Shown piece after piece: positions 4,538-26,229 of a stretch of DNA of 32,000 nucleotides. Source of the stretch: Trichlorobacter lovleyi SZ (lineage in GTDB: Bacteria; Desulfobacterota; Desulfuromonadia; Geobacterales; Pseudopelobacteraceae); the NCBI RefSeq assembly GCF_000020385.1, contig NC_010814.1:1350001-1382000 (forward strand), in the 5' to 3' direction. Each line of letters begins with the position of its first letter. Position 1 is the stretch's first letter. The notes under the pieces are model-generated. The model was not told where the DNA came from, did not search any database, and saw nothing but the letters and a program-made list of their open reading frames with translations. The translations under genes were made by a program, and so were the position numbers.

Positions 4538-5456
4538 TGTGCATACAGATGGGTCTGCTGTGTCCCCCCCTTCAACGGGGCGGGTGCTGTTCTTTCTGGT
4601 GCTGACCACGTTTTTCTGGGGCGGCAGTTTTCTCTTTACCAAGATTGGTGTCAGGGAGGTGCCGCCGCCGTTTTTTGTGCTGTTGCGTTTTTCACTGGCC
4701 TCCGTTGTGATGGGACTGCTCTGCCTGCCGCGGCTTGGCCGGCTTAACCGCCAGACTATCCTGCGTGGGACCATCGTTGGTCTGGCACTGGGGATCACCA
4801 ACCTGACCTTTGTGGTTGGGGTGCAGGGAACCAGCATCTCCCGCGCAGGAGTCATCAATAATCTGTTTGTGCTGTTTATTCCGCTCATCGCGAGGATTGC
4901 CTGGAAAGACCGGATCGGCGGCATCAATACCGCAGGAATCGGGCTTGCTTCGCTGGGGATCGCCCTGCTGGCCGGAGGGGGCGGTGAGGGGTTCAACCGT
5001 GGTGATATGATCTCCACCCTGTGTGCCTTCTTTATTGCAATCCATATCATTACGGTTTCCAGGGTCTTGAAGGATGAAGATGTCTGGCTGGTCTCCTTTG
5101 TGCAGTTCTGTGTCGTTGCACTGATGGCTGCAGTGATAACGCTGGTGGTGCCGACGCCACCGTTTTCCCTGGGACTGACCTCCCTTGCTACGATCATCTA
5201 CTGTGCCATCCTGCCAACGGTGGTCTGTTTTACCCTGCAAAACAGGTATCAACGCTATGTGACACCCACCCAGGCCGGTCTGATCTATACCCTGGATCCG
5301 GTCTGGAGCCTCCTGGCAGGTTTTGCGGTTCTGGGTGAACGGCTGACAACGCGGGAGTGGTACGGCTGTGGCTTGATCTTTCTGGCGGTGCTGATCCCGT
5401 TGGGGATCCGTTTTGCAATCGAACGTCGCCTGGTTTTCCGCTACTTGCATCGCTGA
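4530..5456 (+). CDS. EamA/DMT-family transporter (10 TM)
   Basis: Two EamA-like halves with about 10 hydrophobic helices (FFWGGSFLFTKIGV...; YTLDPVWSLLAGFAVLGERL). Start is uncertain: TTG 4509, GTG 4530 or GTG 4539, with AGGAGA at 4521-4526. Confidence 0.8.
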   Translation: MDSVHTDGSAVSPPSTGRVLFFLVLTTFFWGGSFLFTKIGVREVPPPFFVLLRFSLASVVMGLLCLPRLGRLNRQTILRGTIVGLALGITNLTFVVGVQGTSISRAGVINNLFVLFIPLIARIAWKDRIGGINTAGIGLASLGIALLAGGGGEGFNRGDMISTLCAFFIAIHIITVSRVLKDEDVWLVSFVQFCVVALMAAVITLVVPTPPFSLGLTSLATIIYCAILPTVVCFTLQNRYQRYVTPTQAGLIYTLDPVWSLLAGFAVLGERLTTREWYGCGLIFLAVLIPLGIRFAIERRLVFRYLHR

Positions 5457-5480
5457 CCGGCAGGATAGGTTTCCGCTGGG

Positions 5481-5508
5481 TTGTGTATAGCAGGTAGAGT
5501 GGTATAGT
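5481..5508 (+). promoter_or_regulatory. Sigma70-like promoter candidate upstream of the kinase-like gene
   Basis: TTGTGT (5481-5486), 16-nt spacer, TATAGT (5503-5508), about 50 nt before ATG 5558. Confidence 0.35.
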
Positions 5509-5557
5509 CACATCAATTGCAAGCAGTCGCTGAACCTTGATTACAGGGAGTGAAACC

Positions 5558-6451
5558 ATGCAGAAGCTGAGTGATGAACAACTGGTTGAAGAACTGAAAT
5601 TCCGCCTGGATCAGAGCCGCAAGTCATTACGGGATCTGTCGATAGTTAATCGTAAGCTGGTTGAACTGAACCATAAACTGGAAGAGTCCGAGGCCCTGAA
5701 AAGTAATTTCCTTTCAAACATACGCAATGAAATCAATAATCCTCTTAACTCCATCATTGGACTGGCCGCGCAACTTGCGGCTATTGTGAAAAGACCCGAG
5801 GTGAGCGAGCTGGTTGCCATGATCTTTTCCGAGGCCTTTCAGCTGGACTTCCAGCTGCGCAACATTTTTATTGCTGCCGAACTGGAGGCCGGTGAGGCGA
5901 TGCCGAGCATAGAACATGTCGAAGTGATCTCAGTTATACGGGGAGTACTGGATAATTTCAGGACTCATGCTGCCGAAAAGCAGGTCTCGGTCAGTTTTTC
6001 TGTTACCGGGGCAGAGGCGGATACCCTGCTGTACTTTCCCACCGATTCCCAGAAACTTCAGGTGATAGTTGCGAATCTGGTGGCTAATGCGGTCGAGTTC
6101 AGCGGTCCGGGCAGCGAAGTAAGGGTGCAGCTTGATCAGACCGAGGGGGGATTGATGATTCAGGTCCAGGATCAGGGGGTTGGTATTGCAGAAGCCGATC
6201 TGAAAAGGATCTTTGACCGTTTTGTGCAGCTGGATAGCGGCCCCACCCGTGCTCACCTCGGCCATGGACTGGGGTTAAGCGTGGTCAAGTCGCTGCTGGA
6301 TCTGCTGCAGGGTGACATACAGGTCAGTAGTACGCCTGCTGTTGGTTCACTCTTTACGGTTATGCTGCCAGCCGCAGCTTACGGGGCTGACGGAATTACC
6401 TTTGCCGAAGGCGGCAACCTGTTCCTGTTCGGGCAGATGGACGAGAAATAG
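5558..6451 (+). CDS. Histidine-kinase-like protein (coiled coil + DHp + HATPase_c) with Asn at the phospho-His position
   Basis: H-box-like FLSNIRNEINNPLNSI compared with the canonical FLANMSHELRTPLNAI. N box (NLVANAVEFS), G1 (DQGVGI), F (IFDRFVQ) and G2 (GHGLGLS) are present. GGGAG RBS precedes ATG 5558. No TM or sensor domain. Confidence 0.8.
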   Translation: MQKLSDEQLVEELKFRLDQSRKSLRDLSIVNRKLVELNHKLEESEALKSNFLSNIRNEINNPLNSIIGLAAQLAAIVKRPEVSELVAMIFSEAFQLDFQLRNIFIAAELEAGEAMPSIEHVEVISVIRGVLDNFRTHAAEKQVSVSFSVTGAEADTLLYFPTDSQKLQVIVANLVANAVEFSGPGSEVRVQLDQTEGGLMIQVQDQGVGIAEADLKRIFDRFVQLDSGPTRAHLGHGLGLSVVKSLLDLLQGDIQVSSTPAVGSLFTVMLPAAAYGADGITFAEGGNLFLFGQMDEK

Positions 6452-6454
6452 CGC

Positions 6455-6940
6455 ATGTCTGAGCAGGACGGATCACCCATACGTAAATACTTTCTCTTTC
6501 CCGGCGCTACCCATGTTGATGCCGAAGAATGCGAGATCACGACCGTTCTGGGATCGTGCGTGGCTGTCTGTCTCTGGGATCAGCGCCATGGCGGGGGGGG
6601 GATGAACCATTTCATGTTGCCGCTCTGGAACGGTGAGGGGTTGGCAACCCCCAAATATGGGTCCATCGCCATGGAGCGTTTGCTGGAGCAGGTGCTGGCT
6701 ATCGGTGCCCGTAAAGAGCATCTGGTTGCAAAGGTCTTTGGTGGAGCAAACCTGCTGTCAACCAGCAGTGCCGCCTGTCCGATCGGTGAGCGGAATATTG
6801 AGCTGGCCATGACACAACTTGAGGAATGGCGGATCGCAGTAGTCGCTACTGATCTGGGTGGCCGGGTCGGGCGTAAGATAATTATGAATACCATGACCGG
6901 TGTGGTGCTTTTGGGGCGGGGCAAGCAGCAAAATCAGTAA
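6455..6940 (+). CDS. cheD: Chemoreceptor glutamine deamidase CheD
   Basis: TTVLGSCVAVCLWD (catalytic Cys region), GGMNHFMLP (His), KVFGGANL and ERNIE motifs. The ATG lies 3 nt after the upstream TAG. Confidence 0.85.
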   Translation: MSEQDGSPIRKYFLFPGATHVDAEECEITTVLGSCVAVCLWDQRHGGGGMNHFMLPLWNGEGLATPKYGSIAMERLLEQVLAIGARKEHLVAKVFGGANLLSTSSAACPIGERNIELAMTQLEEWRIAVVATDLGGRVGRKIIMNTMTGVVLLGRGKQQNQ

Positions 6941-6958
6941 GTAGTTGTTATATGGCGT

Positions 6959-6987
6959 TTGACTTTCGCTGGTTCTTTTCCTAGTAT
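6959..6987 (+). promoter_or_regulatory. Sigma70-like promoter candidate
   Basis: TTGACT (6959-6964), 17-nt spacer, TAGTAT (6982-6987), 42 nt upstream of ATG 7029. Confidence 0.45.
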
Positions 6988-7028
6988 CATTTTTACGTTA
7001 CGCATTAACTTGGGGGCTGGTAACTGCT

Positions 7029-7367
7029 ATGCAGAAGATACCGCTTAACCTGGCAGCCGCCGAAATGGTACTGGCCCGGGACATCTTTAAAAACGACAGT
7101 CCGACCGGTATGCCGATCTGCGGCAAGGGGACTGTGCTTTCAGATTCACTGATCAGCCGTTTGCAGCAGATGGGGGTGCAGTCGCTCTACGTTGAAGGCC
7201 ACCCGGTCTGGCAGGAGGGGGATCGTTGTCTCTCCGAGCAGCTGGCTGACCTTGAAAAGCGGTTCTCCAAGACACTGGATAATCGTCACAATGCGGTCCT
7301 GCTTGATATTTATCGCAATCATCTTACTACAGCGATGGGAGATAACGGTGGACGAACGGAGGAGTGA
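7029..7367 (+). CDS. Small hypothetical protein resembling the N-terminal accessory module of HD-GYP/HD-domain signalling proteins
   Basis: KIPLNLAAAEMVLARDIF.....G.PICGKGTVLSDSLISRLQQMGVQSLYV matches the (pos)L..GM.LA.DI....G..L...G..L....I..L...GI..V.V pattern. Promoter-like element upstream. No enzymatic motif. Confidence 0.55.
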   Translation: MQKIPLNLAAAEMVLARDIFKNDSPTGMPICGKGTVLSDSLISRLQQMGVQSLYVEGHPVWQEGDRCLSEQLADLEKRFSKTLDNRHNAVLLDIYRNHLTTAMGDNGGRTEE

Positions 7368-8202
7368 TCTCAAAAAGATCATCATGGACACCAAGACGCT
7401 GCCAACGCTGCCCGGTGTCATCAATAAGCTGAACTCCCTTTCCAATGACGACAAGTCTTCGGTTCAGGAAATGGCGCGGATTGTCTCTGCTGATCAGGTG
7501 CTGTCAGCCCGGATTCTGCGTTTGGCCAACTCACCGTCCTATGGCTTCTATCGCGTCTCCACCATATCCAATGCCATGATTTTGCTGGGGGTTAACGTGG
7601 TCAAGTCCCTGGCGCTGTCCTCATCCATCTTTGAGATCATGGAAAAAAACAGCGTCGGGCTTTGGGAGCATTCCCTGGGAACTGCCACTGCTGCAGGTAT
7701 CATCGCCCGCAAACTGGCATTGCCGGAGGTTGAGGAAATTACCACTGCCGGTCTGCTGCATGATATCGGCAAGGTGATCATCGGTCTCAAGTGCGCCGAG
7801 CAGATGCCGGAGATCCGGCGCAAGATCAAGCTGGATGAGCTTTTTATCAGCGATGCCGAAAGGGCTGTCCTGGATACGGATCATGCTGAAGTGGGGGGCT
7901 GGCTTTCCAAGAGCTGGTTCCTGCCGGACAAACTTTCCGAGCCGATTGCCTTCCATCATAATGTGAGTGGTTCTGAAGACCATCGGATCAAGACCTCAGT
8001 GGTGCATCTGGCTGATGTGCTGATCAAGGCCAGTGGTTTTGGCGACAGTGGAGACACGTATGTGCCGCCGATCCAGCAGGTCGCCTGGGATGCCTTGAAA
8101 CTGGATGAGGCCCTGCTGCATGAGATGGTAGTGGACCTGGAGGATAAGCTGGTGGAGGTGAAGAACTTCAGTCTTGAGCTTGCCAATGCCGCAGCAGTCT
8201 AG
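7348..8202 (+). CDS. HDOD domain protein
   Basis: LPTLPGVINKL......SSVQEMARIVSADQVLSARILRLANSPSYG and AGLLHDIGKVII motifs. GTG 7348 sits 5 nt after GGGAGA; ATG 7384 is the alternative. The ORF-track start 7192 would overlap the upstream gene by 176 nt. Confidence 0.8.
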   Translation: MDERRSDLKKIIMDTKTLPTLPGVINKLNSLSNDDKSSVQEMARIVSADQVLSARILRLANSPSYGFYRVSTISNAMILLGVNVVKSLALSSSIFEIMEKNSVGLWEHSLGTATAAGIIARKLALPEVEEITTAGLLHDIGKVIIGLKCAEQMPEIRRKIKLDELFISDAERAVLDTDHAEVGGWLSKSWFLPDKLSEPIAFHHNVSGSEDHRIKTSVVHLADVLIKASGFGDSGDTYVPPIQQVAWDALKLDEALLHEMVVDLEDKLVEVKNFSLELANAAAV

Positions 8203-9124
8203 GATTGCCCTCATCTCAAGTCAGATGCAGCTTTCGTCACTGCTGCAGTTGCGCCTGCAAAGCAAGGGCTACCAGGTTATGGTTGTGGAGAAGACCGCGG
8301 CTGCCCTGGGGGCATTTTACTCTGATCCGCCTGACCTGATCATCGTGGATTTTTCCTCACCCTGTGTCGGCTGTCACGATATGCTCTGCATGGTGCGCAG
8401 TGACAGTTTCTTCAGCCCCATTCCCATTATCGGGATTTTTCCCATGGGGACAGAGCAGGAGTCCTGGGACGATTTTCCCCTTGATGACTTTGTGACCACG
8501 CCGGTCAACTTTGCTGAACTGGTCAGCCGGATCACGCTGTCGCTGTCACGCATCAAGCGGATCTTTGATAACAACCCCCTGACCAGATTGCCCGGTAATA
8601 CCTCAATTCACCGTGCCATTGAAGAGTCACTCGGCCTGCCTCTGGCGGTCTGCTACGTTGATATCAATCACTTCAAGCCCTATAATGATGTCTTTGGTTT
8701 TTCCCATGGAGATGAAGTGATCAGGATGTTGGCCAGGATTATGGCGAATGCCGTGCGTGAATCCGGCGGCGGGTTTTGCGGGCATGTGGGGGGGGATGAC
8801 TTTGTGTTTATCGTCCCCCGCGAACGGGCAGAGCCTGTCTGTTCAACTATTATCAGCCATTTTGATCAAATCGTACAGACCCTGTTTGACGAGGATATCA
8901 AGCAGCAGGGCTACTACTTGGCTCTTAACCGTAAGGGCGAGAAGGAACAGATGCCTATTCTGGGAATCTCCATTGCCGTCGTACCAATGGACTCCACTGC
9001 CATCACCCATGCCGCGCGGGTTTCTGAAGTGGCGGCTGAGCTGAAGAAGCTGGCAAAAGGAAAGACGGGGAGTTGTTTTGTGGTGGACAGGCGGTCAGGT
9101 TCGCCGGAATCCGACCAGTTGTAA
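8186..9124 (+). CDS. Degenerate receiver (pseudo-REC) fused to a GGDEF-family domain with a GGDDF motif
   Basis: REC-like fold: IALISSQ / LIIVDF / PIIGIFP / DDFVTTPV. GGDEF-like: NPLTRLPGN, VDINHFKPYNDVFGFSHGDEV, GHVGGDDFVFIV. Start ATG 8186 (TTG 8174 possible) overlaps the HDOD stop. Confidence 0.8.
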   Translation: MPQQSRIALISSQMQLSSLLQLRLQSKGYQVMVVEKTAAALGAFYSDPPDLIIVDFSSPCVGCHDMLCMVRSDSFFSPIPIIGIFPMGTEQESWDDFPLDDFVTTPVNFAELVSRITLSLSRIKRIFDNNPLTRLPGNTSIHRAIEESLGLPLAVCYVDINHFKPYNDVFGFSHGDEVIRMLARIMANAVRESGGGFCGHVGGDDFVFIVPRERAEPVCSTIISHFDQIVQTLFDEDIKQQGYYLALNRKGEKEQMPILGISIAVVPMDSTAITHAARVSEVAAELKKLAKGKTGSCFVVDRRSGSPESDQL

Positions 9125-9990: not shown

Positions 9991-10998
9991 TCAGGACTTT
10001 TTATGACACTTGGCGCAGTCACCCTTAACGGAGAAGGCGGTCTTGCCGTCGTGGCAGGCGCCACAGGATTTGCCCTGGGCCATATCAGCCATGGTCATCC
10101 GCTTGCCTCCACCATAAGGGAAGGTTTTGGTGTGGCAGTCAGAACATTTGTACGCAGCGGTATGGAAGTCATGGCTGAAATAGCCGACCACGGTACCGCG
10201 GCTGTTTTTGAAGGTCAGGTTGGCCGGTTTGTAGCCCGCGTGACACTTGTTACAGTCACCGGTTGAAGCGAAGGCGGTTTTGCCATCGTGGCAGCTTCCG
10301 CAGGACTTGCCTTTCGCCATGTCAGCCATACTGGCTTTACGGGAGCCTTGGCGATAGTCGTACTTCTTGGTGTGACAGTCGCCGCACTTGTAGGCCTGTA
10401 CGTGGAAGTCATGACTGAATACCGCATCATTAACAGGCTTTGACTTGTATTTAAGAGTCTTTGTGGCCAGACCGCGGTGGCAGGAACCGCAGTTTGCAGC
10501 GGCAGTAAAAGCGGTTTTTCCATTGTGGCATGAACCGCAGGATTTACCTTTTTCCATTTCGGCCATGCTGACACCACGGCGGATCGGACCACCTTTGTGA
10601 CAGCTCTTGCAGCCGAACCCTTTGCCGTTGACGTGTGAGTCATGGCTGAACACGGCGTTGCCGGCAGGGATACGATAGGTAATGGCGCTGGGGGTACCGC
10701 GGTGGCATTTACTGCAGTCTTTTTCAACAGCGACACTGAAAGCCTTCTTGCCGTTGTGGCAGGCTCCGCAGGAAAGTCCCTTCTCCATTTCCGCCATGGA
10801 ATAGGAACGCTTCTTGGAAAGATTGAAAATTGCGCTGTGGCAGGTCTTGCAGTCTTTGTTCTTTGCAAGGTGTGTGTCGTGGCTGAAGACAACGGCTGGA
10901 GCGTTCTTGAAACTGAACCTGATGTCCTTGGCCTGCACGGAGACAGCCATAAGCATGACCATAGCCGCTGCAAAGAAGGTAATAATGCGCCTGTTCAT
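9991..10998 (-). CDS. Periplasmic dodecahaem c-type cytochrome, polymer of four c7-type trihaem modules (GSU1996-like)
   Basis: 12 CXXCH motifs (C50, 77, 95, 130, 154, 170, 205, 233, 249, 285, 312, 328). Signal peptide ends VQA/KD. The FSHD.H motif recurs at residues 38, 117, 194 and 274. AAGGGGGA RBS. Confidence 0.9.
   Translation of the reverse strand: MNRRIITFFAAAMVMLMAVSVQAKDIRFSFKNAPAVVFSHDTHLAKNKDCKTCHSAIFNLSKKRSYSMAEMEKGLSCGACHNGKKAFSVAVEKDCSKCHRGTPSAITYRIPAGNAVFSHDSHVNGKGFGCKSCHKGGPIRRGVSMAEMEKGKSCGSCHNGKTAFTAAANCGSCHRGLATKTLKYKSKPVNDAVFSHDFHVQAYKCGDCHTKKYDYRQGSRKASMADMAKGKSCGSCHDGKTAFASTGDCNKCHAGYKPANLTFKNSRGTVVGYFSHDFHTAAYKCSDCHTKTFPYGGGKRMTMADMAQGKSCGACHDGKTAFSVKGDCAKCHKKS
9994..10920 (-). 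repeat. Four tandem, diverged intragenic repeats of about 235-240 bp (one trihaem module each)
   Basis: Recurring DNA blocks on the plus strand: gtcatggctgaaatagcc (~10169), gtcatgactgaataccgc (~10408), gtcatggctgaacacggc (~10639), gtcgtggctgaagacaac (~10876). Protein periodicity is 77-80 aa. Confidence 0.75.
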
Positions 10999-12019: not shown

Positions 12020-13006
12020 ATGCCGCGCCGTATGATATCGTCTGAACTGCTGAAGTTGTTGCGGGCCGGCGGTGATGGCGTTGTATCGGGAGAACAGCTC
12101 AGCCGTGAACTGGGGGTCTCGCGCACGGCGATCTGGAAACAAATTTCAGCTCTGAGGGTAGCCGGATACCGGATAGAGGCCGTCCCCTCGCAGGGGTACT
12201 GCTTGCTTGCGGAGCCTGATCTGCTGGATCAACAGGCGATACGGGCCGGCCTGGCGAGTGGCTGCCTGTTGGGACGTCGGCTTGTCTGCTGTTCAGAAAC
12301 CGCCTCTACCAACAGTGATGCCTTCCACTTGGCTGAAGAGGGGGCCGAGGAGGGGACGGTGGTGCTGGCAGACCGTCAGTTGGCCGGCAAAGGGCGCCTT
12401 GGCAGGCGCTGGGAATCTCCTGCCGGCGTTAACCTCTACTGTTCAGTGGTCTTGCGCCCTGAACTTCCGCCCTATGAGGCACCACAACTGACCTTTCTCT
12501 CTGCAGTGGCGGTTGCCCGAGCCATTCACACAAGCACCGGCCTGCAGCCGGTCATCAAATGGCCCAATGATCTGTTGCTGAACGGTCGCAAGGTTGCCGG
12601 GTTGTTGAACGAAATGAATGCCGAGACTGATCGGGTCGGCTTTGTGATCCTGGGGATCGGGGTTAACCTGAATATGCGGGAGGATCAGTTTCCTCCCGAT
12701 CTACGTTCTCCAGCCACCTCTCTGCTGCTTGAGACCGGTTCAGCGGTCGTCCGCCAGGCCTTTGCCGTTAATCTGTTGCGTGAGCTTGAACGGGAATACC
12801 TCCGGTTTACACAGAACGGTTTTGGGCCGGTACGCGAGGACTGGACCCGCTACTGTAACGCCTTTGGACGTGAAGTGCGAGTGGAAATGGGGCCACACAC
12901 CTTGCAAGGGCCTTTTGCCGGCATTGATCATGACGGCGCCTTGTTGATGACGTTACCGGATGGACGGATTGAGCGGATACTGAGTGGTGATGTGACGGTT
13001 ATCTGA
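12020..13006 (+). CDS. birA: Bifunctional biotin-[acetyl-CoA-carboxylase] ligase / biotin operon repressor
   Basis: N-terminal winged HTH (SGEQLSRELGVSRTAIWKQISALRVAGYRIEA) and biotin-binding loop GKGRLGRRWESP, followed by KWPNDLL..GRKVAGLL. Confidence 0.9.
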   Translation: MPRRMISSELLKLLRAGGDGVVSGEQLSRELGVSRTAIWKQISALRVAGYRIEAVPSQGYCLLAEPDLLDQQAIRAGLASGCLLGRRLVCCSETASTNSDAFHLAEEGAEEGTVVLADRQLAGKGRLGRRWESPAGVNLYCSVVLRPELPPYEAPQLTFLSAVAVARAIHTSTGLQPVIKWPNDLLLNGRKVAGLLNEMNAETDRVGFVILGIGVNLNMREDQFPPDLRSPATSLLLETGSAVVRQAFAVNLLRELEREYLRFTQNGFGPVREDWTRYCNAFGREVRVEMGPHTLQGPFAGIDHDGALLMTLPDGRIERILSGDVTVI

Positions 13007-13030
13007 GCAGGACGGAGAAAGGAGAGGCGT

Positions 13031-13795
13031 TTGCTCCTCGTTATAGATGTTGGCAACAGCAATATTGTACTGGGTATCTACGACGGTGAACTGCTGGTGC
13101 GCCACTGGCGTATCTCGACTGATAAGTCCCGTACTTCAGATGAATACGGGGTCATGCTGAACAGCCTTTTCTCGCTGGCATCCCTGTCCTTTTCTCAGGT
13201 TAAGGCGATTATCATCTCCTCGGTGGTCCCGCCTCTTACCGGTGTGCTTGAATCACTCTGCCGCGATTTTTTTGCGCTGCCTCCCTATGTAGTCGGTCCC
13301 GGCATCAAGACCGGCATGCAGATTCAGTATGATAATCCCCGTGAGGTCGGGGCTGACCGGGTTGTCAATGCGGTGGCCGGTTTTGAAAAACACCGCAGCC
13401 CTTTGATCATTGTCGATTTTGGTACTGCCACTACCTTTGATTATGTGAACAGTAAGGGAGAATACTGCGGAGGTGCCATTGCACCTGGCCTAGCCATCTC
13501 GCTGGAGGCTCTGTTCCAGCGTGCCAGCAAACTGCCGCGGGTGGATATCTGTCGTCCCCCCCATGCCATAGCCAAAAATACGGTCAACTCAATGCAGGCT
13601 GGTATTTTTTACGGGTATGTGGGATTGGTGGATGGTATCGTGGAGCGGATCAAGCTGGAGAGCCGGGATCAGCCACGGGTGCTTGCCACCGGCGGTCTGG
13701 CAGCCCTGATTGCACCTGAATCAAAAACCATTGATGAAGTTGATGAATTTCTTACTCTGGAGGGGTTGAGGATTTTGTACGAACGGAACCGGTAG
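13031..13795 (+). CDS. coaX: Type III pantothenate kinase
   Basis: [30 protein letters not shown] and ATGGLA motifs. TTG start follows AGGAGAGG. Confidence 0.9.
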
Positions 13796-13843
13796 CTTAT
13801 GAAAGTTGTCATGCACCTATCAACGTAGACAAGGAGGCAGCGC

Positions 13844-15928
13844 ATGGGGACGTATCCAACGGAGAAGATTCGTAATCTGGGCATTGTGGCACACGGTGGG
13901 GCCGGTAAGACCTCGCTGGCTGAGGCGATCCTGTTCAATACCGGCATGATCGACCGGCTGGGGCGGGTTGATGACGGTACCGCCACCATGGATTTTGAGC
14001 CTGAAGAGACCAAACGCAAGATTTCAATCTCGTCGGCCTTTGACCACTGCGAGTGGAACGGTCATTCGATTCACTTTGTTGATACCCCCGGCTACGGTGA
14101 TTTTATCGGTGATACCCGTGCCTGTATGCGTGCCCTGGATTGTGCCGTGGTGATCCTTTCAGCCATTTCAGGGGTTAAGGTTCAGACGGAAGAGGTCTGG
14201 GAATGGGCGAACGAATTTGAGATCCCCCGCATCGCCTTTGTCAACAAGATGGACAAGGAACGGGCCAACTTCCTGCGCGCTATCGACGATATGGAGAAGA
14301 GTCTCAAGGCGCGCGGTGTGGCGATCCAGATGCCGATCGGTGCTGAGGAGTCCTTTGAGGGAGTGGTTGACCTGATCCGGATGAAGGCCTGCAAGTACGC
14401 CAAGGATGGCTCGGGCGGCTGTCAGGAGATCGAGATTCCGGCTGAGTATCTTGCTGAGGCCCAGCGCCTGCGGGAGCATATGGTTGAGATCGTGGCTGAG
14501 GCCTACGACGCTCTGACCGAAAAGTATCTGGAGGCCGGCGAGCTGACTGAAGAGGAGATCCTTGACGGCCTGCGGGTCGGTACCATGCGTAACACCTTCA
14601 CCCCGGTACTGTGCGGCTCTGCCACCCTGAACGTTGGAGTACGGCAGCTGTTGGGTGCTGTCTGCGACTTCCTGCCGTCTCCGCTGGATCGGACCAAGGC
14701 GGTTGGCACCAATCCTAAAAACAATGATCTGGTGGAACGTGGGCCGGATGAAAAAGAGCCGTTTTCGGCGCTGGTGTTCAAGACCACTTCTGACCCCTAT
14801 ACCGGTAAGATCACCATCTTCCGGATCTATTCAGGCACCCTTAACTCCGACTCTACCATCTATAATGCCAGTAAAGGGGTGGAGGAACGGATCGGCCAGA
14901 TCTATGAGCTGGAAGGTAAAAAACAGAAGCCGCTCAAGCAGGCCTTTGCCGGCGACATTGTGGCGGTTGCAAAATTGAAGGAAACCGTGACCGGTGATAC
15001 GCTTTGTGATCCGGCTCATCCGGTTGTCTATGAGCCGGCCAGACAGCTGTTGCCGGTGATCTCCTATGCGATTGAGCCGAAAACCAAGGCGGATGAAGAC
15101 AAGATCCATAATGCCCTGCACCGGCTGATCGAAGAGGAACCGACCCTGGAATCCCATCGTGATCCCCAGACCAAAGAGTTCATCATCTCAGGTCTTGGTC
15201 AGGTTCACCTGGATGTGATAGTTGAAAAATTGAAACGCAAATTCAATGTGGATGTGGTACTGAAGACTCCCAAGGTTCCCTATTTTGAAACCATCCGTGG
15301 GACTGCCAAGGTGCAGGGCAAGTACAAGAAACAATCGGGCGGTCGTGGTCAGTACGGTGACTGCTGGATTGAGATGAGCCCCACCGGGCGTGGCGATGGC
15401 TACATCTTTGAAGACAAGGTTGTGGGTGGCGTAGTCCCCCGTCAGTACATTCCTGCCGTTGATAAAGGGATTCAGGAGGCCGCTCTTGAGGGTTTCCTGG
15501 CAGGATACCCGGTGGTGGACTTCAAGGTGGCCCTATATGACGGCTCCTTCCATACGGTTGATTCTTCTGAGATGGCCTTCAAGGTCGCCGGTTCACTGGC
15601 CTTTAAAAAGGCGATGGAACAATGTAAGCCGGTGTTGCTGGAGCCGATCGTCAATCTGGCCGTGACAGTGCCCGATGAAAATATGGGGGACGTGATTGGT
15701 GACCTCAACTCCCGTCGTGGCAAGGTGGTTGGTGTTGAACCCAAGGCAAACTCCCAGACAATCAAGGCGGTGGTCCCGATGTCAGAGGTGCTGGCCTACT
15801 CCAACGACCTGAAGTTCATGACCAGCGACCGTGGCTTGTTCAGTACCGAATTTTCGCACTATGAAGAAGTGCCGACCCATATGGCACAAAAAGTTATTGC
15901 TGAAGCGCAGGCGGCAAAGAAGGATTAA
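13844..15928 (+). CDS. fusA: Elongation factor G paralogue (EF-G II type)
   Basis: Full five-domain EF-G length (694 aa). G1 AHGGAGKTS, G3 DTPGYGDF, G4 NKMD, domain IV/V blocks (KKQSGGRGQYGD, HTVDSSEMAF). It lies outside the str operon. AAGGAGG RBS. Confidence 0.9.
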   Translation: MGTYPTEKIRNLGIVAHGGAGKTSLAEAILFNTGMIDRLGRVDDGTATMDFEPEETKRKISISSAFDHCEWNGHSIHFVDTPGYGDFIGDTRACMRALDCAVVILSAISGVKVQTEEVWEWANEFEIPRIAFVNKMDKERANFLRAIDDMEKSLKARGVAIQMPIGAEESFEGVVDLIRMKACKYAKDGSGGCQEIEIPAEYLAEAQRLREHMVEIVAEAYDALTEKYLEAGELTEEEILDGLRVGTMRNTFTPVLCGSATLNVGVRQLLGAVCDFLPSPLDRTKAVGTNPKNNDLVERGPDEKEPFSALVFKTTSDPYTGKITIFRIYSGTLNSDSTIYNASKGVEERIGQIYELEGKKQKPLKQAFAGDIVAVAKLKETVTGDTLCDPAHPVVYEPARQLLPVISYAIEPKTKADEDKIHNALHRLIEEEPTLESHRDPQTKEFIISGLGQVHLDVIVEKLKRKFNVDVVLKTPKVPYFETIRGTAKVQGKYKKQSGGRGQYGDCWIEMSPTGRGDGYIFEDKVVGGVVPRQYIPAVDKGIQEAALEGFLAGYPVVDFKVALYDGSFHTVDSSEMAFKVAGSLAFKKAMEQCKPVLLEPIVNLAVTVPDENMGDVIGDLNSRRGKVVGVEPKANSQTIKAVVPMSEVLAYSNDLKFMTSDRGLFSTEFSHYEEVPTHMAQKVIAEAQAAKKD

Positions 15929-16022
15929 CAGACGGCAAGGGAGGTGTGAGTTATGGTACCGGAGATCTGGCCGGTCTACCAGCCCGCATCCTCCTTGATC
16001 CAGTTTTTACGGAGGTGTGAGC

Positions 16023-17024
16023 ATGGACTTCAAGTTTAATAGCGAGACGACTGAGGGTGAGACACCGGCTCAGCCCCAGGAGAAAGGTCGTCAGACCGGT
16101 CTGCTGGTGTTGTTGCTGCTGCTACTGGGGGGATTCGGCTATCTCTATTTCTTCACCGGCCTGATTCGGCCCCAGGAACAGCCACCAGCACCCCAGCCTC
16201 CGCCACAGGTGGTAAAACAACCGTTGCCGGCCCGTGATGCAGCACCTGCCGAAACGGCAAAAACTGCTGAACAAAAAGGACAGGTGTCGCCGCCACCGGT
16301 ATCTCCGGCAGCAAAGCCCGTGCCGAAACCGGCTGATCCCAAGGTCGCAGCAGCACCTGCTGCAAAACCGGAGGAAAAGAAACCAGCTCCTGTAAAGCCG
16401 GTTACAAAGCCTGAACCGGCAAAGGGCGCGTCACCCCCGGCAATAAAGAAGCCGGAGCCTGTAAAGCCTGCTACACCGGTCAAGCAGACTGAGAAGGCGG
16501 CGGTAACGGCAAAGAACGTTCCACAAAAGATGGCTGAGCCTGTCAGGAAGGCCGTTGCCGTTCCGAAGAAAAGTGGTCCCTGGACGGTTGTGGCTGGACT
16601 CTATGTGGTTGAAGAAACGCTTGCTGCTGATCTGCCAAAGGTAAAAAAGGCCGGTCTGACACCGCTGATGACCAGTGGTCCCAGGCGCCCGGTTTCCATG
16701 CATCGCCTCTTTTATAATGAGTATAGCGATAAGGACCAGGCCCGTCAGGCAGTAGAGATGTTGCGCAGTAAAGCCGGTGATGGCTTTTCGGTGCAACGTG
16801 GTGATAAGCATGAGGTCTATGCCGGTTCCTATGCCGTGCAGAGCGGCGCACGGTCTGAACAGCAACGTCTTGCTGCGGCCGGTATCAATGTAACGATCAG
16901 AAAGAGTCAGGTACCCCTTGCCTCCCGCAAGCTGACAGCAGGTACCTTCACTGACCGCAAGGCCGCTGAAGAGGCTCTGAAGAAGCTGAAGGGAGCCGGT
17001 ATAGCGGCGCCGGTACTTGAGTAA
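16023..17024 (+). CDS. SPOR-domain protein: TM anchor, long Pro/Ala/Lys-rich linker, C-terminal SPOR-like repeats
   Basis: TM helix LLVLLLLLLGGFGYLYFF. PxK-rich low-complexity region (KPVPKPADPK..KPEEKKPAPVKPVTKPEPAK..). C-terminal beta-alpha-beta-beta units (HEVYAGSYAVQSGARSEQQRLAAAGI; LTAGTFTDRKAAEEALKKLKGAGI). ATG 16023 sits 7 nt after GGAGG. Confidence 0.7.
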   Translation: MDFKFNSETTEGETPAQPQEKGRQTGLLVLLLLLLGGFGYLYFFTGLIRPQEQPPAPQPPPQVVKQPLPARDAAPAETAKTAEQKGQVSPPPVSPAAKPVPKPADPKVAAAPAAKPEEKKPAPVKPVTKPEPAKGASPPAIKKPEPVKPATPVKQTEKAAVTAKNVPQKMAEPVRKAVAVPKKSGPWTVVAGLYVVEETLAADLPKVKKAGLTPLMTSGPRRPVSMHRLFYNEYSDKDQARQAVEMLRSKAGDGFSVQRGDKHEVYAGSYAVQSGARSEQQRLAAAGINVTIRKSQVPLASRKLTAGTFTDRKAAEEALKKLKGAGIAAPVLE

Positions 17025-17035
17025 CGGAGGGGCTG

Positions 17036-17956
17036 GTGTCTGAGCCGGTCAAGATAAATATCCCGGCATCTGTGGCAGCGTTTGTGCGGCCGGGGACGCC
17101 ATTACAGGAACGTTTGCGGGGGGCTGGAGGTGCTGTTGACCTCCCCCCGCGTGAACTGCTGTTGCTGCTTTTCTGTCTTGGCAAGGATACTGATCAGGAG
17201 GTGTGTACACGTGCAACCTCCAGCATGGCCTCATTGCCCCCGGGCCTGATATGTGCTGCCCTTGAAGGCGGTGAGTATCATCCGGCTGTCCTGCATGCTT
17301 TGGCCTTGAACCGTGGAGCAACCACCGAGATCAGGACTGCCCTGTTGGAACGGCCCGAACTGTCTGATGTGACGCGGGAGCTTCTACAGACGTTTCATAC
17401 GGCTGTGTCCGAACCGGAAGAGATCGGAGCTGCAGGGACGGATGTCGGCGGGCTTCCTTTGGATGATGAGGAGTTGCTTCCTGATGAGCAGTTTACCGAA
17501 TCTGAGCATGATCAGGAAGCTGAACCGGGTGAATCGGATGAAGAATATCTGAGTAAATACCAGTTGGCCCAGGAGATGGGAATTGGCGAAAAGATCAAGA
17601 TGGCGCTGACCGGTGACAAGGAATGGCGCAAAATTCTGGTTAAGGATGCCAACAAGCTGGTGAGCGCCGGGGTGCTTAAGAATCCACGGATGTCCGAGCC
17701 GGAGGTCTTGACGCTCTTGAAGTCCGGGGTACAGAACGATGAGATCATGCGGCTGATCTGTGCCAACAAGGAATGGGTGAAAAACTACCAGATCCGTAAG
17801 GCGCTGATAGAAAATCCAAAGACTCCCTTGGCTAATGCACTGCGTTATCTGGGTACCATGAATGAAAAGGATGTTGCCGGTTACGCCAAAAGCCGCAATA
17901 TTTCTTCCGTGGTATCAACCCAGGCCAAACGGATGCTGCTGAATAAAAAACGCTAG
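17036..17956 (+). CDS. Hypothetical helical-repeat protein (HEAT/leucine-rich-variant-like NPxxP repeats) with an acidic linker
   Basis: GTG 17036 sits 5 nt after GGAGG. Repeats of the type LKNPRMSEPEVLTLLKS / LIENPKTPLANALRYLG. Acidic stretch DDEELLPDEQFTESEHDQEAEPGESDEEY. No catalytic motif recognised. Confidence 0.55.
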   Translation: MSEPVKINIPASVAAFVRPGTPLQERLRGAGGAVDLPPRELLLLLFCLGKDTDQEVCTRATSSMASLPPGLICAALEGGEYHPAVLHALALNRGATTEIRTALLERPELSDVTRELLQTFHTAVSEPEEIGAAGTDVGGLPLDDEELLPDEQFTESEHDQEAEPGESDEEYLSKYQLAQEMGIGEKIKMALTGDKEWRKILVKDANKLVSAGVLKNPRMSEPEVLTLLKSGVQNDEIMRLICANKEWVKNYQIRKALIENPKTPLANALRYLGTMNEKDVAGYAKSRNISSVVSTQAKRMLLNKKR

Positions 17957-17980
17957 AAGACTGAACAAGGCCCTTCCTTT

Positions 17981-18793
17981 ATGGCGGTTATTAATCACGC
18001 AAAGCGTGAAATAAATGCGAAAATTGTCTATTTTGGTTCCCCTGGCTGTGGCAAGGGGGCGCTGTTTCAGTTTATACATCAGAGAATCAAGCCAAGCCTG
18101 TGCGGGCCGCTCAAGTCGATGCCTGCCGGTCAGGACTCGTTACTTTTCTTTGACTATATCCCGTTTGAAGCCTCCAGTCTGGATGGTTATCGTATCCGTT
18201 TTCATCTCTATACCATGACCGGTCCGGTTGCCAACCCGGGGACCTGGAAGATGACCTTGAAGGGGGTTGACGGAATTGCCCTTGTAACAAACGGGAGAGC
18301 ATCCGGCCATGATGCGGTTGACAGTCTGCGAGTCTTAAAATCAATGTTGGCCGGTTACGGTAGAGATTTGCGCAGTCTGCCCCGAATCTGGCTCCCAACT
18401 GATCTTTCTGATAGCGGCGATGCCGGCTCTGAACTCATGACCTGTTTTGATACAAGCCGTACGGTCGTCTGCTCGACGACAAACGGTGAAGGGGTGTTGC
18501 AGGGTCTGGCAGTGCTTTCCCAGGAGGTGTTACAGGGGCTGCGGGATGAGTACGAGCCGGCACGTGAGCCTGCTATTACTTCAATGCTGCCGGTTGAACC
18601 GCCTGATGAGCTGTTCGCAGATTCCGGCCAGGGCGCGCCACTTCAGTCATTTAAATCAGTTGTGCTGCCTGAACTCAAGGTGTCTCTGGCAGGGAATACA
18701 ACAGTCACCATCCCCTTGTCCATTCAGCTTGGAGACTCTGTTAAACGCTGTAACCTGCGTTTTTCAGTTCAGCTTGAAGAAGAGTCGTTATGA
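17981..18793 (+). CDS. MglA-family Ras-like small GTPase homologue with degenerate nucleotide motifs and a ~110-aa C-terminal extension
   Basis: INHAKREINAKIVYFGSPGCGKG....I and RFHLYTMTGPV...K.TLKGVDGI align with M. xanthus MglA [24 protein letters not shown] and RFHLYTVPGQV...KLILKGVDGV (MglA sequence recalled from memory). Confidence 0.7.
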   Translation: MAVINHAKREINAKIVYFGSPGCGKGALFQFIHQRIKPSLCGPLKSMPAGQDSLLFFDYIPFEASSLDGYRIRFHLYTMTGPVANPGTWKMTLKGVDGIALVTNGRASGHDAVDSLRVLKSMLAGYGRDLRSLPRIWLPTDLSDSGDAGSELMTCFDTSRTVVCSTTNGEGVLQGLAVLSQEVLQGLRDEYEPAREPAITSMLPVEPPDELFADSGQGAPLQSFKSVVLPELKVSLAGNTTVTIPLSIQLGDSVKRCNLRFSVQLEEESL

Positions 18794-19476
18794 TCTTATC
18801 CTCATTTGAGATACAGTTGCTTATACGTCTGTTACTGGCAACCTTGCTGGGCGGCTTGATCGGTCTTGAGCGGGAACTCCATGGTCGTCCGGCCGGTTTC
18901 CGTACGCATTTAATGGTGGCGTTGGGAGCAGCCCTCTATATGGGGGTCTCGTTGCATTTCTACCAGGTTTATGGTGCTCTTTCAGGGAATCTCGCGGTAC
19001 GGGTAGACCCTGGTCGTGTTGCTGCCCAGATTGTCGTCGGGATCGGCTTTTTGGGGGCTGGGGCGATAATTCGTGAGAATGCCTCTGTACGTGGTCTGAC
19101 AACGGCAGCCTGCCTTTGGGTGGCAGCAGCTATCGGTACGGCCTGTGGTGCCGGAATGCTCTTGATTGCTGTGGTGGTGACCGCTATTTCTCTCGTCAGT
19201 CTGCTCGTTTTAAAGCGGGTGGAGGAGGGATTGAGCCGGGATATTTACCAGCAGGTAATGGTGTCGAGCGAATACCGTGAGGGGCAATCGGAGCGGATTG
19301 CCCAGGCGGTACGGGATTGCGGCTCTGATTTGATGGAAAGCGGTATTGCGCGGGATGTTGAAGCTGGTACAGTGACATTTGAATTTCGTGTCAGGGTAAT
19401 CAGTGGGATTGCAACCTGCAAACTGGTTGATGTCCTGTCAGGCATTGAAGGGGTGAAACTGGTTAGTCTGCGCTGA
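18790..19476 (+). CDS. mgtC: MgtC/SapB-family membrane protein
   Basis: LLLATLLGGLIGLERE..GRPAGFRTH..V..G(A)AL signature. About 4-5 TM helices plus a cytoplasmic ACT-like C-terminal domain. The ATG overlaps the upstream stop (ATGA, 18790-18793). Confidence 0.85.
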   Translation: MILSSFEIQLLIRLLLATLLGGLIGLERELHGRPAGFRTHLMVALGAALYMGVSLHFYQVYGALSGNLAVRVDPGRVAAQIVVGIGFLGAGAIIRENASVRGLTTAACLWVAAAIGTACGAGMLLIAVVVTAISLVSLLVLKRVEEGLSRDIYQQVMVSSEYREGQSERIAQAVRDCGSDLMESGIARDVEAGTVTFEFRVRVISGIATCKLVDVLSGIEGVKLVSLR

Positions 19477-20059
19477 TTTGCCGATTCAAGCGGGGCAAGA
19501 GGAACGGGACGTCGCGCTGGTATTGGCGGTAGGTGTCGCCAAACAGTCGAATCATCCTGCGTTCTTCAAGCAGGGCCCCAAAGATAAAGTAAGGGATGCT
19601 GAACAGGGTCAAAACGAGCCAGCGTGTTGTGATAACCGGGTTTAACAGCAAAAACAGTATGCCGAGCAGATAGAGCGGATGTCTGACTACGGCATAGCAA
19701 CCGGTAGTTATCAGCGCGGGACGCTCATGCAGACTGGCTATATCCGTGCCCAGAAAGCCTGCCAGACCGGTCTGACGAAGACAGGCCAGGCCTGCCCAGA
19801 TTATGATAAATTGCAATCCATACAGCACAAGGCTCCATACGCCTGGCAGGACATAGATAACGCTGGTTGATTGCCACGCCAGCATAACCCAGCCAAAAAG
19901 CAGCATTGAAAACAGGTTGTAGATAAGGCGATACCCGGCCAAGGGGCGTCCTGCTAAATGCTCTATGCGCTCCTTGATACGCGGTGCCGCCAGCAGTGAA
20001 TGGGTGATGCAGAAAACGGTAAGGCGTAGCACGAAGTCCAGGCTGTCCGGCACGGTCAC
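19463..20059 (-). CDS. Membrane methyltransferase-family protein (ICMT/PEMT-like)
   Basis: Multi-TM protein with C-terminal LITTGCYAVVRHPLY...EERRMIRLFGDTYRQYQRDVP, the ICMT/phospholipid-methyltransferase-type signature. Confidence 0.7.
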   Translation of the reverse strand: MTVPDSLDFVLRLTVFCITHSLLAAPRIKERIEHLAGRPLAGYRLIYNLFSMLLFGWVMLAWQSTSVIYVLPGVWSLVLYGLQFIIIWAGLACLRQTGLAGFLGTDIASLHERPALITTGCYAVVRHPLYLLGILFLLLNPVITTRWLVLTLFSIPYFIFGALLEERRMIRLFGDTYRQYQRDVPFLLPRLNRQISAD

Positions 20060-20165
20060 CTCCTTTGTCAGAGTCGTACCCTAGCATTGCCGTCTTGTAC
20101 AGACAAGCGGAACGTGTTAGGTTCTTGCCGTATACAATTAGTTTGAACCGGAGGAGTGCATTAAA

Positions 20166-20993
20166 ATGCCGATTATTACGATTTCCCGTGAAATGGGAAC
20201 CGGTGCTTATGGTGTAGCCAAGGAGTTGGCAAAAAAACTGAAGTATACACTGGTTGACGGTCCCAAACTTGCCGCTTGTGCCGCTGAATACGGACTCAGC
20301 CTGGAACTGCTGCAGGCGGTGGATGAAAAGCCTCCTTCTTACAACACGGTGGAAGATCGGGCCCGGGCTGCTTCGTTAAACTCCATTGAACTCATTCTGC
20401 TTGATCTTGCCAAGAAGGGAAACGTCATTCTCTACGGCCGCGGCGGGCAGGATCTGCTGCAGGGTTGCGGCAATGTCCTTCGCTTGAGGTTTGTTGCGGA
20501 TTTTGAAGAGCGGGTTGAGCGTTTTGCAGAGCGGGAGTGGATTGACCCTGATCTTGCGCAGGAGCTGATCCGGCGTAGTGATCATCAACGGGGCGGATTT
20601 ATCCATTTCTATTTCGATCGTGACTGGAATGACCCTCTGGGATACGACCTGACGTTCAACACATCCCGGCTTTCTCCTGGCGCCATTATTGATATTATCG
20701 TGGCTGCCGTGAAGGATTCGCAGCTGAAAGAAGCTGACTCCTGGTCTGCCGATGAGATTGAAAATACCATTTTGGTGAAAAAGATAGAAACCGCTCTGCT
20801 GCGTTCTGAAGAGCTTGAGTATCGTCCGTTCAGGATTGAAGTGGAAGACGGGCAGGTCACCCTGTCCGGGTACATCGGTTCAGAACAGGAAAAAAAGGCT
20901 GCACTGAAGGTAGCTGCAGCCATCAAGGGTGTTGAAAGTGTGGTTGATAATCTGCACGTGGTTAACTATAGGGAATATAAGGAAAAATGCTGA
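20166..20993 (+). CDS. Cytidylate-kinase-like family protein with a C-terminal BON domain
   Basis: N-terminus MPIITISREMGTGAYGVAKELAKKL.Y..VD is typical of the Cytidylate_kin2 family. C-terminus VTLSGYIGSEQEKKAALKVAAAIKGVESVVDNLHV is BON-like. Confidence 0.7.
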   Translation: MPIITISREMGTGAYGVAKELAKKLKYTLVDGPKLAACAAEYGLSLELLQAVDEKPPSYNTVEDRARAASLNSIELILLDLAKKGNVILYGRGGQDLLQGCGNVLRLRFVADFEERVERFAEREWIDPDLAQELIRRSDHQRGGFIHFYFDRDWNDPLGYDLTFNTSRLSPGAIIDIIVAAVKDSQLKEADSWSADEIENTILVKKIETALLRSEELEYRPFRIEVEDGQVTLSGYIGSEQEKKAALKVAAAIKGVESVVDNLHVVNYREYKEKC

Positions 20994-25371: not shown

Positions 25372-26229
25372 ATGTATGCCGCTATTCCGGTTACAACAGA
25401 TAGTTTTTCAAAATATCTGTCTGAAATAAAATCTTTTCCACTGCTTGATGAGCAGGAGGAACATCGCTTGGCTGTGCGCCTGTTTGAAGAGAATGATTTG
25501 AGTGCTGCGCAGACTCTGATTACGTCAAACCTGCGCTTTGTTGTAAAGATAGCTGCTGAGTACCGTAACTACGGACTTAAGATGCTGGACTTGATTCAGG
25601 AGGGTAACATTGGCCTGATGCTGGCGGTGAGAAAGTTTAATCCGTACCGCGGATTCCGTTTGATTACCTATGCTGTGTGGTGGATCAGAGCGCAGATTCA
25701 AAGTTACATTGTTTCTTCATGGAGCCTGCTTAAGATCGGCACAACTCAGGCTCAGCGCAAACTCTTCTTTAAATTGAAGCAGGCGAAGAATGCCATTCTT
25801 AGCATGAACGGTGGCGATGAGGGGGATCTGCCGGCAACTGCGCTTTCGCTTGACGTCCGTGAGGCGGAGGTTGAAGAGATGGAGCTGCGCTTGATGGGCG
25901 AGGTCTCGCTGGATGCGGAGCAGGTCGCTGGTGAAGGTGGGAGTCTTTTGGAGACTCTGGTTGATGACCGTCCCAATCAGGAGAGCCAACTTGCGGATTT
26001 GCAGGAGCAGCAAGCCTTGAGGGTGGTTGTTGCTGATGCCGTGTCACGACTTGGCGAGAAAGAGCAGTTTGTTGTCAAACAGCGAATCGTGGCAGATGAC
26101 CCCATGACGTTGCAGGAGATTGCAGACCACTTTTCAATATCACGTGAGCGCGTCCGCCAGATTGAGGAAAATGCGCTCAGGAAAATCAAGGGCTTTTTAG
26201 GGGCGAGCATGCAACTCCAGCACGTGTAA
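25372..26229 (+). CDS. rpoH: RNA polymerase sigma-32 (heat-shock) factor
   Basis: Region 2 LRFVVKIA..Y...GL...DLIQEGNIGLM.AV.KF.P..G.RL..YA.WWI.A. RpoH box QRKLFFKLK. Region 4 LQEIADHFSISRERVRQIE..AL.K. Confidence 0.9.
   Translation: MYAAIPVTTDSFSKYLSEIKSFPLLDEQEEHRLAVRLFEENDLSAAQTLITSNLRFVVKIAAEYRNYGLKMLDLIQEGNIGLMLAVRKFNPYRGFRLITYAVWWIRAQIQSYIVSSWSLLKIGTTQAQRKLFFKLKQAKNAILSMNGGDEGDLPATALSLDVREAEVEEMELRLMGEVSLDAEQVAGEGGSLLETLVDDRPNQESQLADLQEQQALRVVVADAVSRLGEKEQFVVKQRIVADDPMTLQEIADHFSISRERVRQIEENALRKIKGFLGASMQLQHV

Follow-up and report, generated by a model that had tools for sequence, protein, structure and literature searches.

Introduction

To our knowledge, what is understood of bacterial small Ras-like GTPases comes almost entirely from MglA and SofG, and pseudoGTPases have been described almost only in eukaryotes. 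The mechanism established for MglA relies on an intrinsic arginine finger together with Gln82, positioned by MglB, and an insert located between motifs G1 and G2 is a feature of the bacterial MglA family (PMC4316618). It has also been described that proteins of this family carry a G3 motif of the TxxG type with a compensating Asp58 (PMC3000849). SofG of Myxococcus xanthus is an orphan MglA paralogue without MglB that acts in polarity (PMC4316618). In addition, Geobacter species possess a canonical MglA that shares 82% identity with its M. xanthus counterpart and has MglB encoded next to it (PMC3000849). Here we describe an MglA-like gene of Trichlorobacter lovleyi SZ, located at 17981..18793 on the forward strand of a 32,000-nucleotide stretch of contig NC_010814.1 (positions 1,350,001 to 1,382,000; the whole stretch is hereafter called the window). 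Its product is probably a locked, non-hydrolysing descendant of MglA that has been kept as a protein-binding module.

Fold and Descent of the MglA-like Protein

The open reading frame (ORF) starts with ATG and encodes 270 amino acids (aa) plus a stop codon. A phmmer search of the chains in the Protein Data Bank (PDB) with this protein retrieved MglA only, with E=3.9e-25 over aa 1-136 for the M. xanthus protein (6hjh) and E=7e-23 over aa 1-184 for that of Thermus thermophilus (3t12), at 32-39% sequence identity. An AlphaFold2 model built with 63 homologues as input reached a mean predicted local distance difference test score (pLDDT) of 83.9. It contains a complete G domain (aa 1-191, mostly above 90), a disordered stretch with pLDDT below 50 (aa 196-221) and a hairpin whose strands, aa 239-250 and 253-264, score 80-88. 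When this model was compared with the PDB by Foldseek, MglA structures ranked first and Ras-type proteins came far behind. The top comparison was with MglA-GDP (6hjo; E=3e-18, target template modelling (TM) score 0.85). Structures of MglA in the GDP state gave target TM scores of 0.81-0.85, versus 0.77-0.80 for MglB-bound complexes with GTP analogues, and the free GTPgammaS structure 6h17, at 0.82, falls inside the GDP-state range. Moreover, aa 1-100 align without gaps with M. xanthus MglA, so the bacterial insertion between G1 and G2 is present.

These similarities of sequence and fold extend across the whole G domain and place the protein, by descent, in Group 1 of the MglA family. The MglA homology proposed in the initial annotation is therefore borne out (phmmer E=3.9e-25, Foldseek TM 0.85), with revised boundaries: the MglA-like part is a full G domain ending at about aa 191 rather than a segment of about 160 aa, and the C-terminal tail spans about 80 aa instead of about 110. 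Scans of the protein against Pfam and NCBIfam gave no match, and no Pfam small-GTPase model was hit even at E<=1; these empty scans show only the extent to which the motifs have decayed.

Loss of GTPase Motifs

The window protein lacks the intrinsic arginine finger R53, the switch I residue T54, the catalytic Q82 and the NKxD motif. In the alignment, switch I QDSLLFFDY pairs with TDRTLFFDF of MglA, and TGPV pairs with PGQV. The P-loop, GSPGCGKG, departs from the Walker A pattern GxxxxGK[S/T]. At the fourth motif, TDLS comes after strand beta5 (RIWLP) at the position of NKRD in MglA, a register that is fixed because the AlphaFold model predicts beta5 at aa 135-139. The changes T26G, R53S, T54L, Q82P and NKRD to TDLS had all been registered correctly from the sequence at the outset, as both the alignment and the predicted beta5 strand confirm. 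At G3, TxxG stands in place of DxxG (T78-M-T-G81) and the compensating Asp58 accompanies it, both elements being present. Pfam scans detected no Roadblock/LC7 (MglB) domain in any sizeable ORF of the window, in agreement with what had been noted initially, and none was found among the called genes at the orthologous loci looked up.

A search for relatives of the protein yielded 490 sequences at 90% clustering, a count that includes canonical MglA; the closest 120 of these are nearly all full-length, 260-290 aa long and unnamed. A scan with one genome per species found a relative in 165 species, and 82 loci, each with its species-level sequence, were analysed. Among the best 80 of the 165 species, almost all bear the label Geobacter, Trichlorobacter, Geobacteraceae, Pelobacter or Desulfuromonadales; in a few cases the metagenome-bin label is no more than a broad one or is discordant. 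Trichlorobacter thiogenes, at 73% identity, is the closest relative in culture.

Across the 82 sequences, G19 is invariant and K25 is found in all 82, and position 26 is variable, with S (28) and G (27) the most frequent residues, followed by N (9) and R (9). At position 53, N is found 41 times, S 18 times, T 13 times and R never, position 54 is L in 80, and D58 is present in all 82. T78 is kept in 73 and G81 in 81, and position 82 is variable (P 21, T 12, K 10, I 10, Q 7). At the NKxD positions, N occurs in 59 sequences, K in 12 and D in 14. On the other hand, the segment that follows G3 contains a family-specific and nearly invariant motif, NPxTWKM (N85 in 81, P86 in 79, W89 in 82 and M91 in 81), which forms part of a longer switch II/helix alpha2 motif, NPxTWKMTLKGxDG.

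The same pattern emerges from a broader cross-tabulation of 437 distinct sequences, 377 of them non-canonical. Only one of these 377 retains T/S54, and Q82 is retained in 22, S/T26 in 102, R53 in 140 and NKxD in 163. R53 and NKxD tend to be retained or lost jointly, with both present in 123, neither in 197 and discordant states in 57. As the initial annotation had asked whether the substitutions are conserved in orthologues, it is worth stating that they are, both in the 82 species-level sequences and among the 377 non-canonical relatives; the losses are conserved features of the lineage, and no accident of a single genome.

The gene is under strong purifying selection. Compared with two close relatives, the ratio of nonsynonymous to synonymous substitution rates (dN/dS) is lowest in the G domain (0.10-0.14), higher in the hairpin (0.21-0.36) and highest in the linker (0.7-1.06), and the G-domain value indicates that this is not a pseudogene. 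The best-conserved regions are the N-terminal strands (column conservation 0.88 for aa 1-20), the switch I/interswitch strands (0.79 for aa 44-63) and switch II/helix alpha2 (0.82 for aa 69-100). The back of the G domain, aa 101-192, reaches only 0.48-0.59.

The C-Terminal Extension

The extension of about 80 aa, for which the initial annotation had suggested a structure prediction, is modelled by AlphaFold as a disordered linker (approximately aa 192-228) followed by a beta-hairpin (aa 239-264). The column conservation of the linker is 0.29, and within the hairpin P245 is found in 79 and R256 in 70 of the 82 sequences. The linker evolves neutrally and the hairpin is conserved. The hairpin motif can be written as hPhxh...G...RRxhxhxh, that is, hydrophobic-P-hydrophobic, a Gly turn, and then RR-x-h-x-h-x-h. 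Among the best 150 matches of a profile search (see below), an acidic disordered linker and the same hairpin motif occur in most long forms, be they canonical, intermediate or degenerate. The window protein belongs to this long MglA-like family with a C-terminal hairpin. The tail had been regarded as novel, a view that does not hold, as the linker-plus-hairpin arrangement is common to hundreds of MglA-like proteins, some of them with fully intact G motifs.

A separate observation concerns the ends of these long proteins. Of 58 long MglA-like representatives whose G motifs are fully intact, about 20 terminate in a basic amphipathic tail (e.g., ...KKGLLSRLFGGG and ...KKRGFFSRLFGG), among them P0381, P0359, P0319, P0325 and P0367; none of these proteins is encoded in the window. 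These tails are almost identical to the membrane-targeting sequence of Escherichia coli MinD, KGFLKRLFGG (PMC5471200). The resemblance suggests that their bearers may form a clade of membrane-tethered bacterial small GTPases.

A Graded Series and a Shared Locus

When 1.84 billion representative proteins were searched with a profile, 4741 matches were obtained, 1140 of them at E<=1e-30. The best 150 of the 4741 form a series that runs from long canonical forms through intermediate forms to fully degenerate ones. The long canonical forms (300-660 aa) have every G motif intact (GKTT, DRT, PGQ, NKRD). The intermediate forms (280-320 aa) keep the arginine finger and NKxD, carry Met54, lack Gln82 and are variable at position 26, and the fully degenerate forms resemble the window protein. 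In Geobacter sensu stricto, the orthologues still have NKxD and, for the most part, the arginine finger.

Four intermediate forms were examined, from Geobacter sp. AOG1, one Desulfuromonadales metagenome-assembled genome and two metagenome contigs. All four lie at the exact locus of the window gene, nadC-birA-coaX-EF-G-SPOR-X-MglA-like-...-CMK/BON-PHP-nth, where X is the gene for the upstream protein X306. This shared locus identifies the intermediate forms as positional orthologues and not as extra paralogues; that they might be separate paralogues within the same genomes was considered and ruled out, the same locus being occupied. The term paralogue, used for the window protein at first, should give way to that of an end member of one orthologous series at a fixed locus.

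In a neighbour-joining tree of the G domains, the short canonical, long canonical, intermediate and degenerate forms are nested in that order, and the root-to-tip distance climbs from about 0.3 to 0.6, 1.0 and 1.3-1.6 from canonical to degenerate. Of the comparison with MglA and SofG that had been suggested initially, the alignment with MglA and this nested tree were obtained. Taken together, the locus and the tree indicate that one orthologous lineage, fixed at a single locus in Geobacterales/Desulfuromonadales, lost its GTPase motifs stepwise, and the window protein is the most decayed end of the series. The putative order of loss, with T54 and Q82 first, accompanied by relaxation of T26, and then R53 and NKxD, is indicative only, as the tree carries no support values.

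Genomic Neighbourhood

The features of the protein and its neighbours are collected in Table 1. The gene for X306 lies directly upstream of the MglA-like gene in 81 of the 82 loci and in all the loci looked up later. It is preceded by a GGAGG ribosome-binding site and separated by 11 nucleotides from the SPOR gene and by 24 nucleotides from the MglA-like gene. Its model shows two alpha-helical repeat domains (aa 11-124 and 167-305) with an acidic disordered linker between them. A Pfam scan assigned X306 to no family, one source labels a homologue 'leucine rich repeat variant', and its Foldseek matches, to designed armadillo repeats, were all weak (E>0.05); on the predicted model, no name more specific than a generic alpha-solenoid is warranted. 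The C-terminal 135 aa of X306 are nearly invariant, identity reaching 90% or more in many columns at an overall identity of 50%, and the p-distance is 0.24 for the C-terminal domain versus 0.59 for the N-terminal one. A search with X306 gave 1348 matches, and those with the MglA-like protein 490 and 1573 (both including canonical MglA); such similar numbers are compatible with co-occurrence of the two proteins without demonstrating it.

Table 1. Coordinates in the window of the MglA-like gene, its motifs and domains, and the neighbouring genes
Feature	Coordinates	Strand	Basis or remark
Whole ORF, MglA-derived pseudo-GTPase	17981..18793	+	Homology, AlphaFold, Foldseek
G domain, aa 1-191, MglA fold	17981..18553	+	AlphaFold, Foldseek, dN/dS
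P-loop GSPGCGKG (MglA GPGLCGKT)	18035..18058	+	G19, G24 and K25 kept; Mg-binding Thr26 replaced by Gly
Switch I/beta2 GQDSLLFFDY, aa 50-59	18128..18157	+	R53 to S, T54 to L; D58 kept
G3/switch II TMTGPVANPGTWKMT, aa 78-92	18212..18256	+	T78 and G81 kept; Q82 to P
G4 remnant WLPTDLS (MglA IQYNKRD)	18389..18409	+	Register set by predicted beta5
Disordered linker, aa 192-228	18554..18664	+	pLDDT, column conservation, dN/dS
Amphipathic C-terminal beta-hairpin, aa 229-266, ...TVTIPLSIQLGDSVKRCNLRFSVQLE	18665..18778	+	AlphaFold, conservation, dN/dS
EF-G paralogue, head of the same-strand run EF-G-SPOR-X306-MglA-like	13844..15928	+	Pfam; 76/82 loci
SPOR-domain bitopic membrane protein	16023..17024	+	Pfam SPOR, E=1.3e-12
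X306, 306 aa, alpha-solenoid (ARM/HEAT/LRV-like), candidate partner	17036..17956	+	AlphaFold, synteny
MgtC-family gene, variable neighbour, not core	18790..19476	+	13/82 loci

The position of the SPOR gene is conserved in 78 of the 82 loci, and its ATG at 16023, which follows a GGAGG, is a likelier start than the GTG at 16017. The short cytoplasmic N-terminus of the protein bears a conserved peptide, M-D/E-F/I-K-F-x-K-D (MDFKF... in the window). This peptide and a juxtamembrane (E/D)KG(R/K)Q motif occur in most loci with a degenerate MglA-like gene, and the peptide differs at loci with intermediate MglA-like forms. A link between the SPOR protein and the MglA-like module is possible. The EF-G paralogue sits away from the ribosomal-protein genes of the window. 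Downstream, the ATG of the MgtC gene overlaps the stop codon of the MglA-like gene (ATGA, 18790-18793), which suggests that translation of the two might be coupled. Scans of 12900-20300 for promoters and terminators gave counts equal to those of shuffled controls, and the proposed operon structure is consequently read from the short intergenic gaps alone.

No tblastn matches to X306, SPOR or EF-G were obtained in 80 metagenomic loci that carry canonical MglA, short or long, which implies that the candidate partner is not shared with the sampled active long forms. At the sampled long canonical loci, the genes nearby are different ones (TPR proteins, DUF4388, GGDEF, histidine kinase), and X306 homologues are absent. 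One canonical long MglA-like gene, encoding 301 aa (L168:4977-9377), is flanked by two TPR proteins and followed by a DUF4388 protein, and at the metagenomic locus L160 a canonical long form has a TPR protein upstream.

Other genes of the window may be mentioned briefly. A signalling cluster at 1269-9124 contains a GGDEF protein (1269-2057, reverse strand), a PAS protein (3662-4537), a histidine kinase (5537-6451), CheD (6455-6940) and an HDOD protein (7192-8202), and ends with a protein that has a partial GGDEF match (8174-9124). A 335-aa multihaem cytochrome with four cytochrome c7-type domains is encoded at 9991-10998 on the reverse strand, and a similar gene occupies the same place in Trichlorobacter ammonificans. 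Further on, a gene for a sigma factor of the RpoH/RpoD type (25372-26229) is followed by tuf, nusG, rplA and rplJ, the span reaching 31111.

Proposed Mechanism and Alternative Explanations

The protein unites a G-domain fold, the loss of catalytic residues and evidence of selection, the combination of features that defines a pseudoGTPase. With the arginine finger, Gln82, an adjacent MglB and the Mg ligands absent, the MglA mechanism would be unusable, from which we strongly infer that GTP hydrolysis has almost certainly been lost. The former switch face and the hairpin are where selection is focused, which points to a gene kept as a binding module independent of the GTPase cycle. According to this proposal, the window protein would not cycle between GTP and GDP and would constitute a constitutive, or 'locked', protein-binding module, whose binding surface would be the former effector face, i.e., the conserved switch region. 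The amphipathic beta-hairpin on its flexible tether would provide a second point of contact, handed down from long-MglA ancestors that were active. More speculatively, the partner could be the alpha-solenoid protein X306 encoded directly upstream and, via the SPOR-domain membrane protein, the complex might mark or read the division site or the new pole. Judged from gene order alone, X306 would be the likeliest partner, and the SPOR protein hints at a connection with the division site.

Several observations weigh against this proposal. Among the 377 non-canonical relatives, K25 is kept in 376, D58 in 362, T/S78 in 370 and G81 in 367. In MglA these residues form the core that touches phosphate and Mg; their persistence could reflect a nucleotide or other phosphate ligand in the pocket, and fits a protein locked by a bound nucleotide just as well as an empty one. 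A mirror-tree comparison of the MglA-like protein with X306 found no covariation of rates beyond that expected from phylogeny (partial r 0.16), and the partial r with the unrelated PHP gene was higher (0.53). The adjacency to X306 and SPOR is also non-discriminating, housekeeping genes being syntenic across the same taxa too. The description of the protein as a 'nucleotide-dead' pseudo-GTPase in the initial annotation is accordingly right as regards hydrolysis, the loss of which is well founded, but overstated as regards the nucleotide, with K25, D58, T78 and G81 near-invariant. The loss of NKxD and S/T26 in the clade of the window protein argues for an empty pocket; the retention of the K25/D58/T78/G81 core argues either for persistent phosphate binding or for a structural salt bridge.

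The persistence of this core is the starting point for the most serious competing explanation, which we consider unlikely yet not negligible: a nucleotide-binding protein with a non-canonical pocket, in which GTP, ATP or another phosphorylated ligand, bound without Mg or base specificity, holds the switches. In a weaker variant, the catalytic residues would be supplied in trans by X306. The core positions stay near-invariant across the 377 relatives while the adjacent catalytic positions drift, Geobacter orthologues retain NKxD and R53, and many distant members have a GKS P-loop, Ser26 being found in 28 of the 82 species-level sequences. The window protein itself, however, has Gly26 and TDLS for NKxD, and the Leu54 shared by 80 of the 82 removes the usual switch I ligands of Mg and of the gamma-phosphate. 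No Pfam small-GTPase model matches at E<=1, and K25-D58 could be a structural salt bridge in an empty pocket.

The MglA-like scaffold of the switch region and the presence in Geobacter of a canonical MglA (82% identical to that of M. xanthus) with adjacent MglB (PMC3000849) also bring to mind a decoy or regulator of the MglA/MglB polarity module, which would bind MglB, RomR/RomX or MglA effectors in an unswitched manner. This is very improbable, because the switch II/alpha2 surface is family-specific (NPGTWKM versus YDASRKL in MglA), so that partners of MglA are unlikely to be recognised, and no genomic link to mglB, RomR/RomX or MglA motility/polarity genes was seen at about 90 loci. Still harder to credit is a functionless, decaying gene remnant. 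All catalytic motifs are indeed lost, and the gene evolves faster than its neighbours (mean p-distance 0.45 versus 0.12-0.40), but the frame is intact in every recovered sequence (82 loci of the 165 species matches and several hundred metagenomic proteins), and long invariant stretches and a G-domain dN/dS of 0.10-0.14 coexist with a neutral linker. Intact frames and this dN/dS led us to reject the pseudogene reading.

Returning to the locked binding module, a bolder version can be formulated, which we regard as doubtful. The Geobacterales orthologues would record the ordered conversion of a GTPase into a pseudoGTPase, in which residues for hydrolysis are shed before the arginine finger and base recognition, and the phosphate-binding core and effector face persist; its end product would be a nucleotide-independent septal or polar landmark acting with X306 and SPOR, and its parents would be the membrane-tethered clade of long MglA-like proteins. 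If true, that parent clade, with its linker, beta-hairpin and MinD-like tail, would represent a bacterial counterpart of the anchor formed by the hypervariable region of Ras.

The lineage offers a natural gradation, with G motifs that are intact in some forms, half-decayed in others and fully decayed in the rest, the motif-lost forms lying at one chromosomal locus, and it could reveal which features of a small GTPase are still needed once switching has been abandoned. Attention is also drawn to a large family of long MglA-like proteins, as yet uncharacterised, and to an unannotated, lineage-specific three-gene unit in Geobacter-type bacteria, which are environmentally and electrochemically important. 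The practical impact will be modest until a phenotype is known.

Comparison with Known Systems

The protein shares with MglA of M. xanthus and T. thermophilus the same fold, collinear over aa 1-190, the additional N-terminal strand MxxINxxxxEINxKIVY, the G1-G2 insertion, TxxG and D58. In contrast to MglA, it lacks S/T26, R53, T54, Q82, NKxD and an adjacent MglB, and it has an 80-aa C-terminal extension and a different conserved switch II surface. SofG, by description, keeps the arginine finger and GTPase activity in 239 aa (PMC4316618). The uncharacterised long canonical MglA-like GTPases (e.g., P0381, P0313 and P0281) have the G domain, the acidic linker and the hairpin in common with the window protein. 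They differ from it in their intact GKTT/DRT/PGQ/NKRD motifs, in their length of 300-660 aa, in the MinD-like tail carried by about one third of them, and in a gene context of TPR, DUF4388 and GGDEF, the X306 neighbour not having been found in the sampled loci.

Members of the lineage have been listed before. A table in Fremgen et al. (2010) contains 'Group II MglA2 proteins', among them NP_952979.1 of G. sulfurreducens (291 aa), with no motif analysis of that group (PMC3000849). A 291-aa Geobacter protein of the present lineage, close to the syntenic AOG1 protein, is 39% identical to MglA, as tabulated in 2010, and NP_952979.1 is very probably an orthologue of the window protein. The Geobacter sensu stricto orthologues retain NKxD and mostly the arginine finger, both of which are gone from the window protein. 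When prokaryotic small GTPases were classified in 2015, only proteins of up to 240 aa were covered (PMC4316618), a limit that left this lineage out. Our literature searches found no paper dealing with how the motifs decayed, with the hairpin, with the orthologous series or with the neighbours, nothing for GSU1929-GSU1932, and no assigned function, as had been surmised at the start; the name 'MglA2' in recent papers refers to other groups.

The closest functional analogy is found in eukaryotes. In the pseudoGTPase domains of AAGAB (psGD), the pG domains of p190RhoGAP and CENP-M, the G-domain fold serves as an interaction module after catalysis has been lost (PMC12490416, PMC5593906). These proteins belong to unrelated lineages and their P-loop is usually fully degenerate, unlike that of the protein described here, in which K25 and the D58/T78/G81 core are kept. 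The MglA family itself is known; what is new is a lineage of pseudoGTPases derived from MglA whose decay can be traced.

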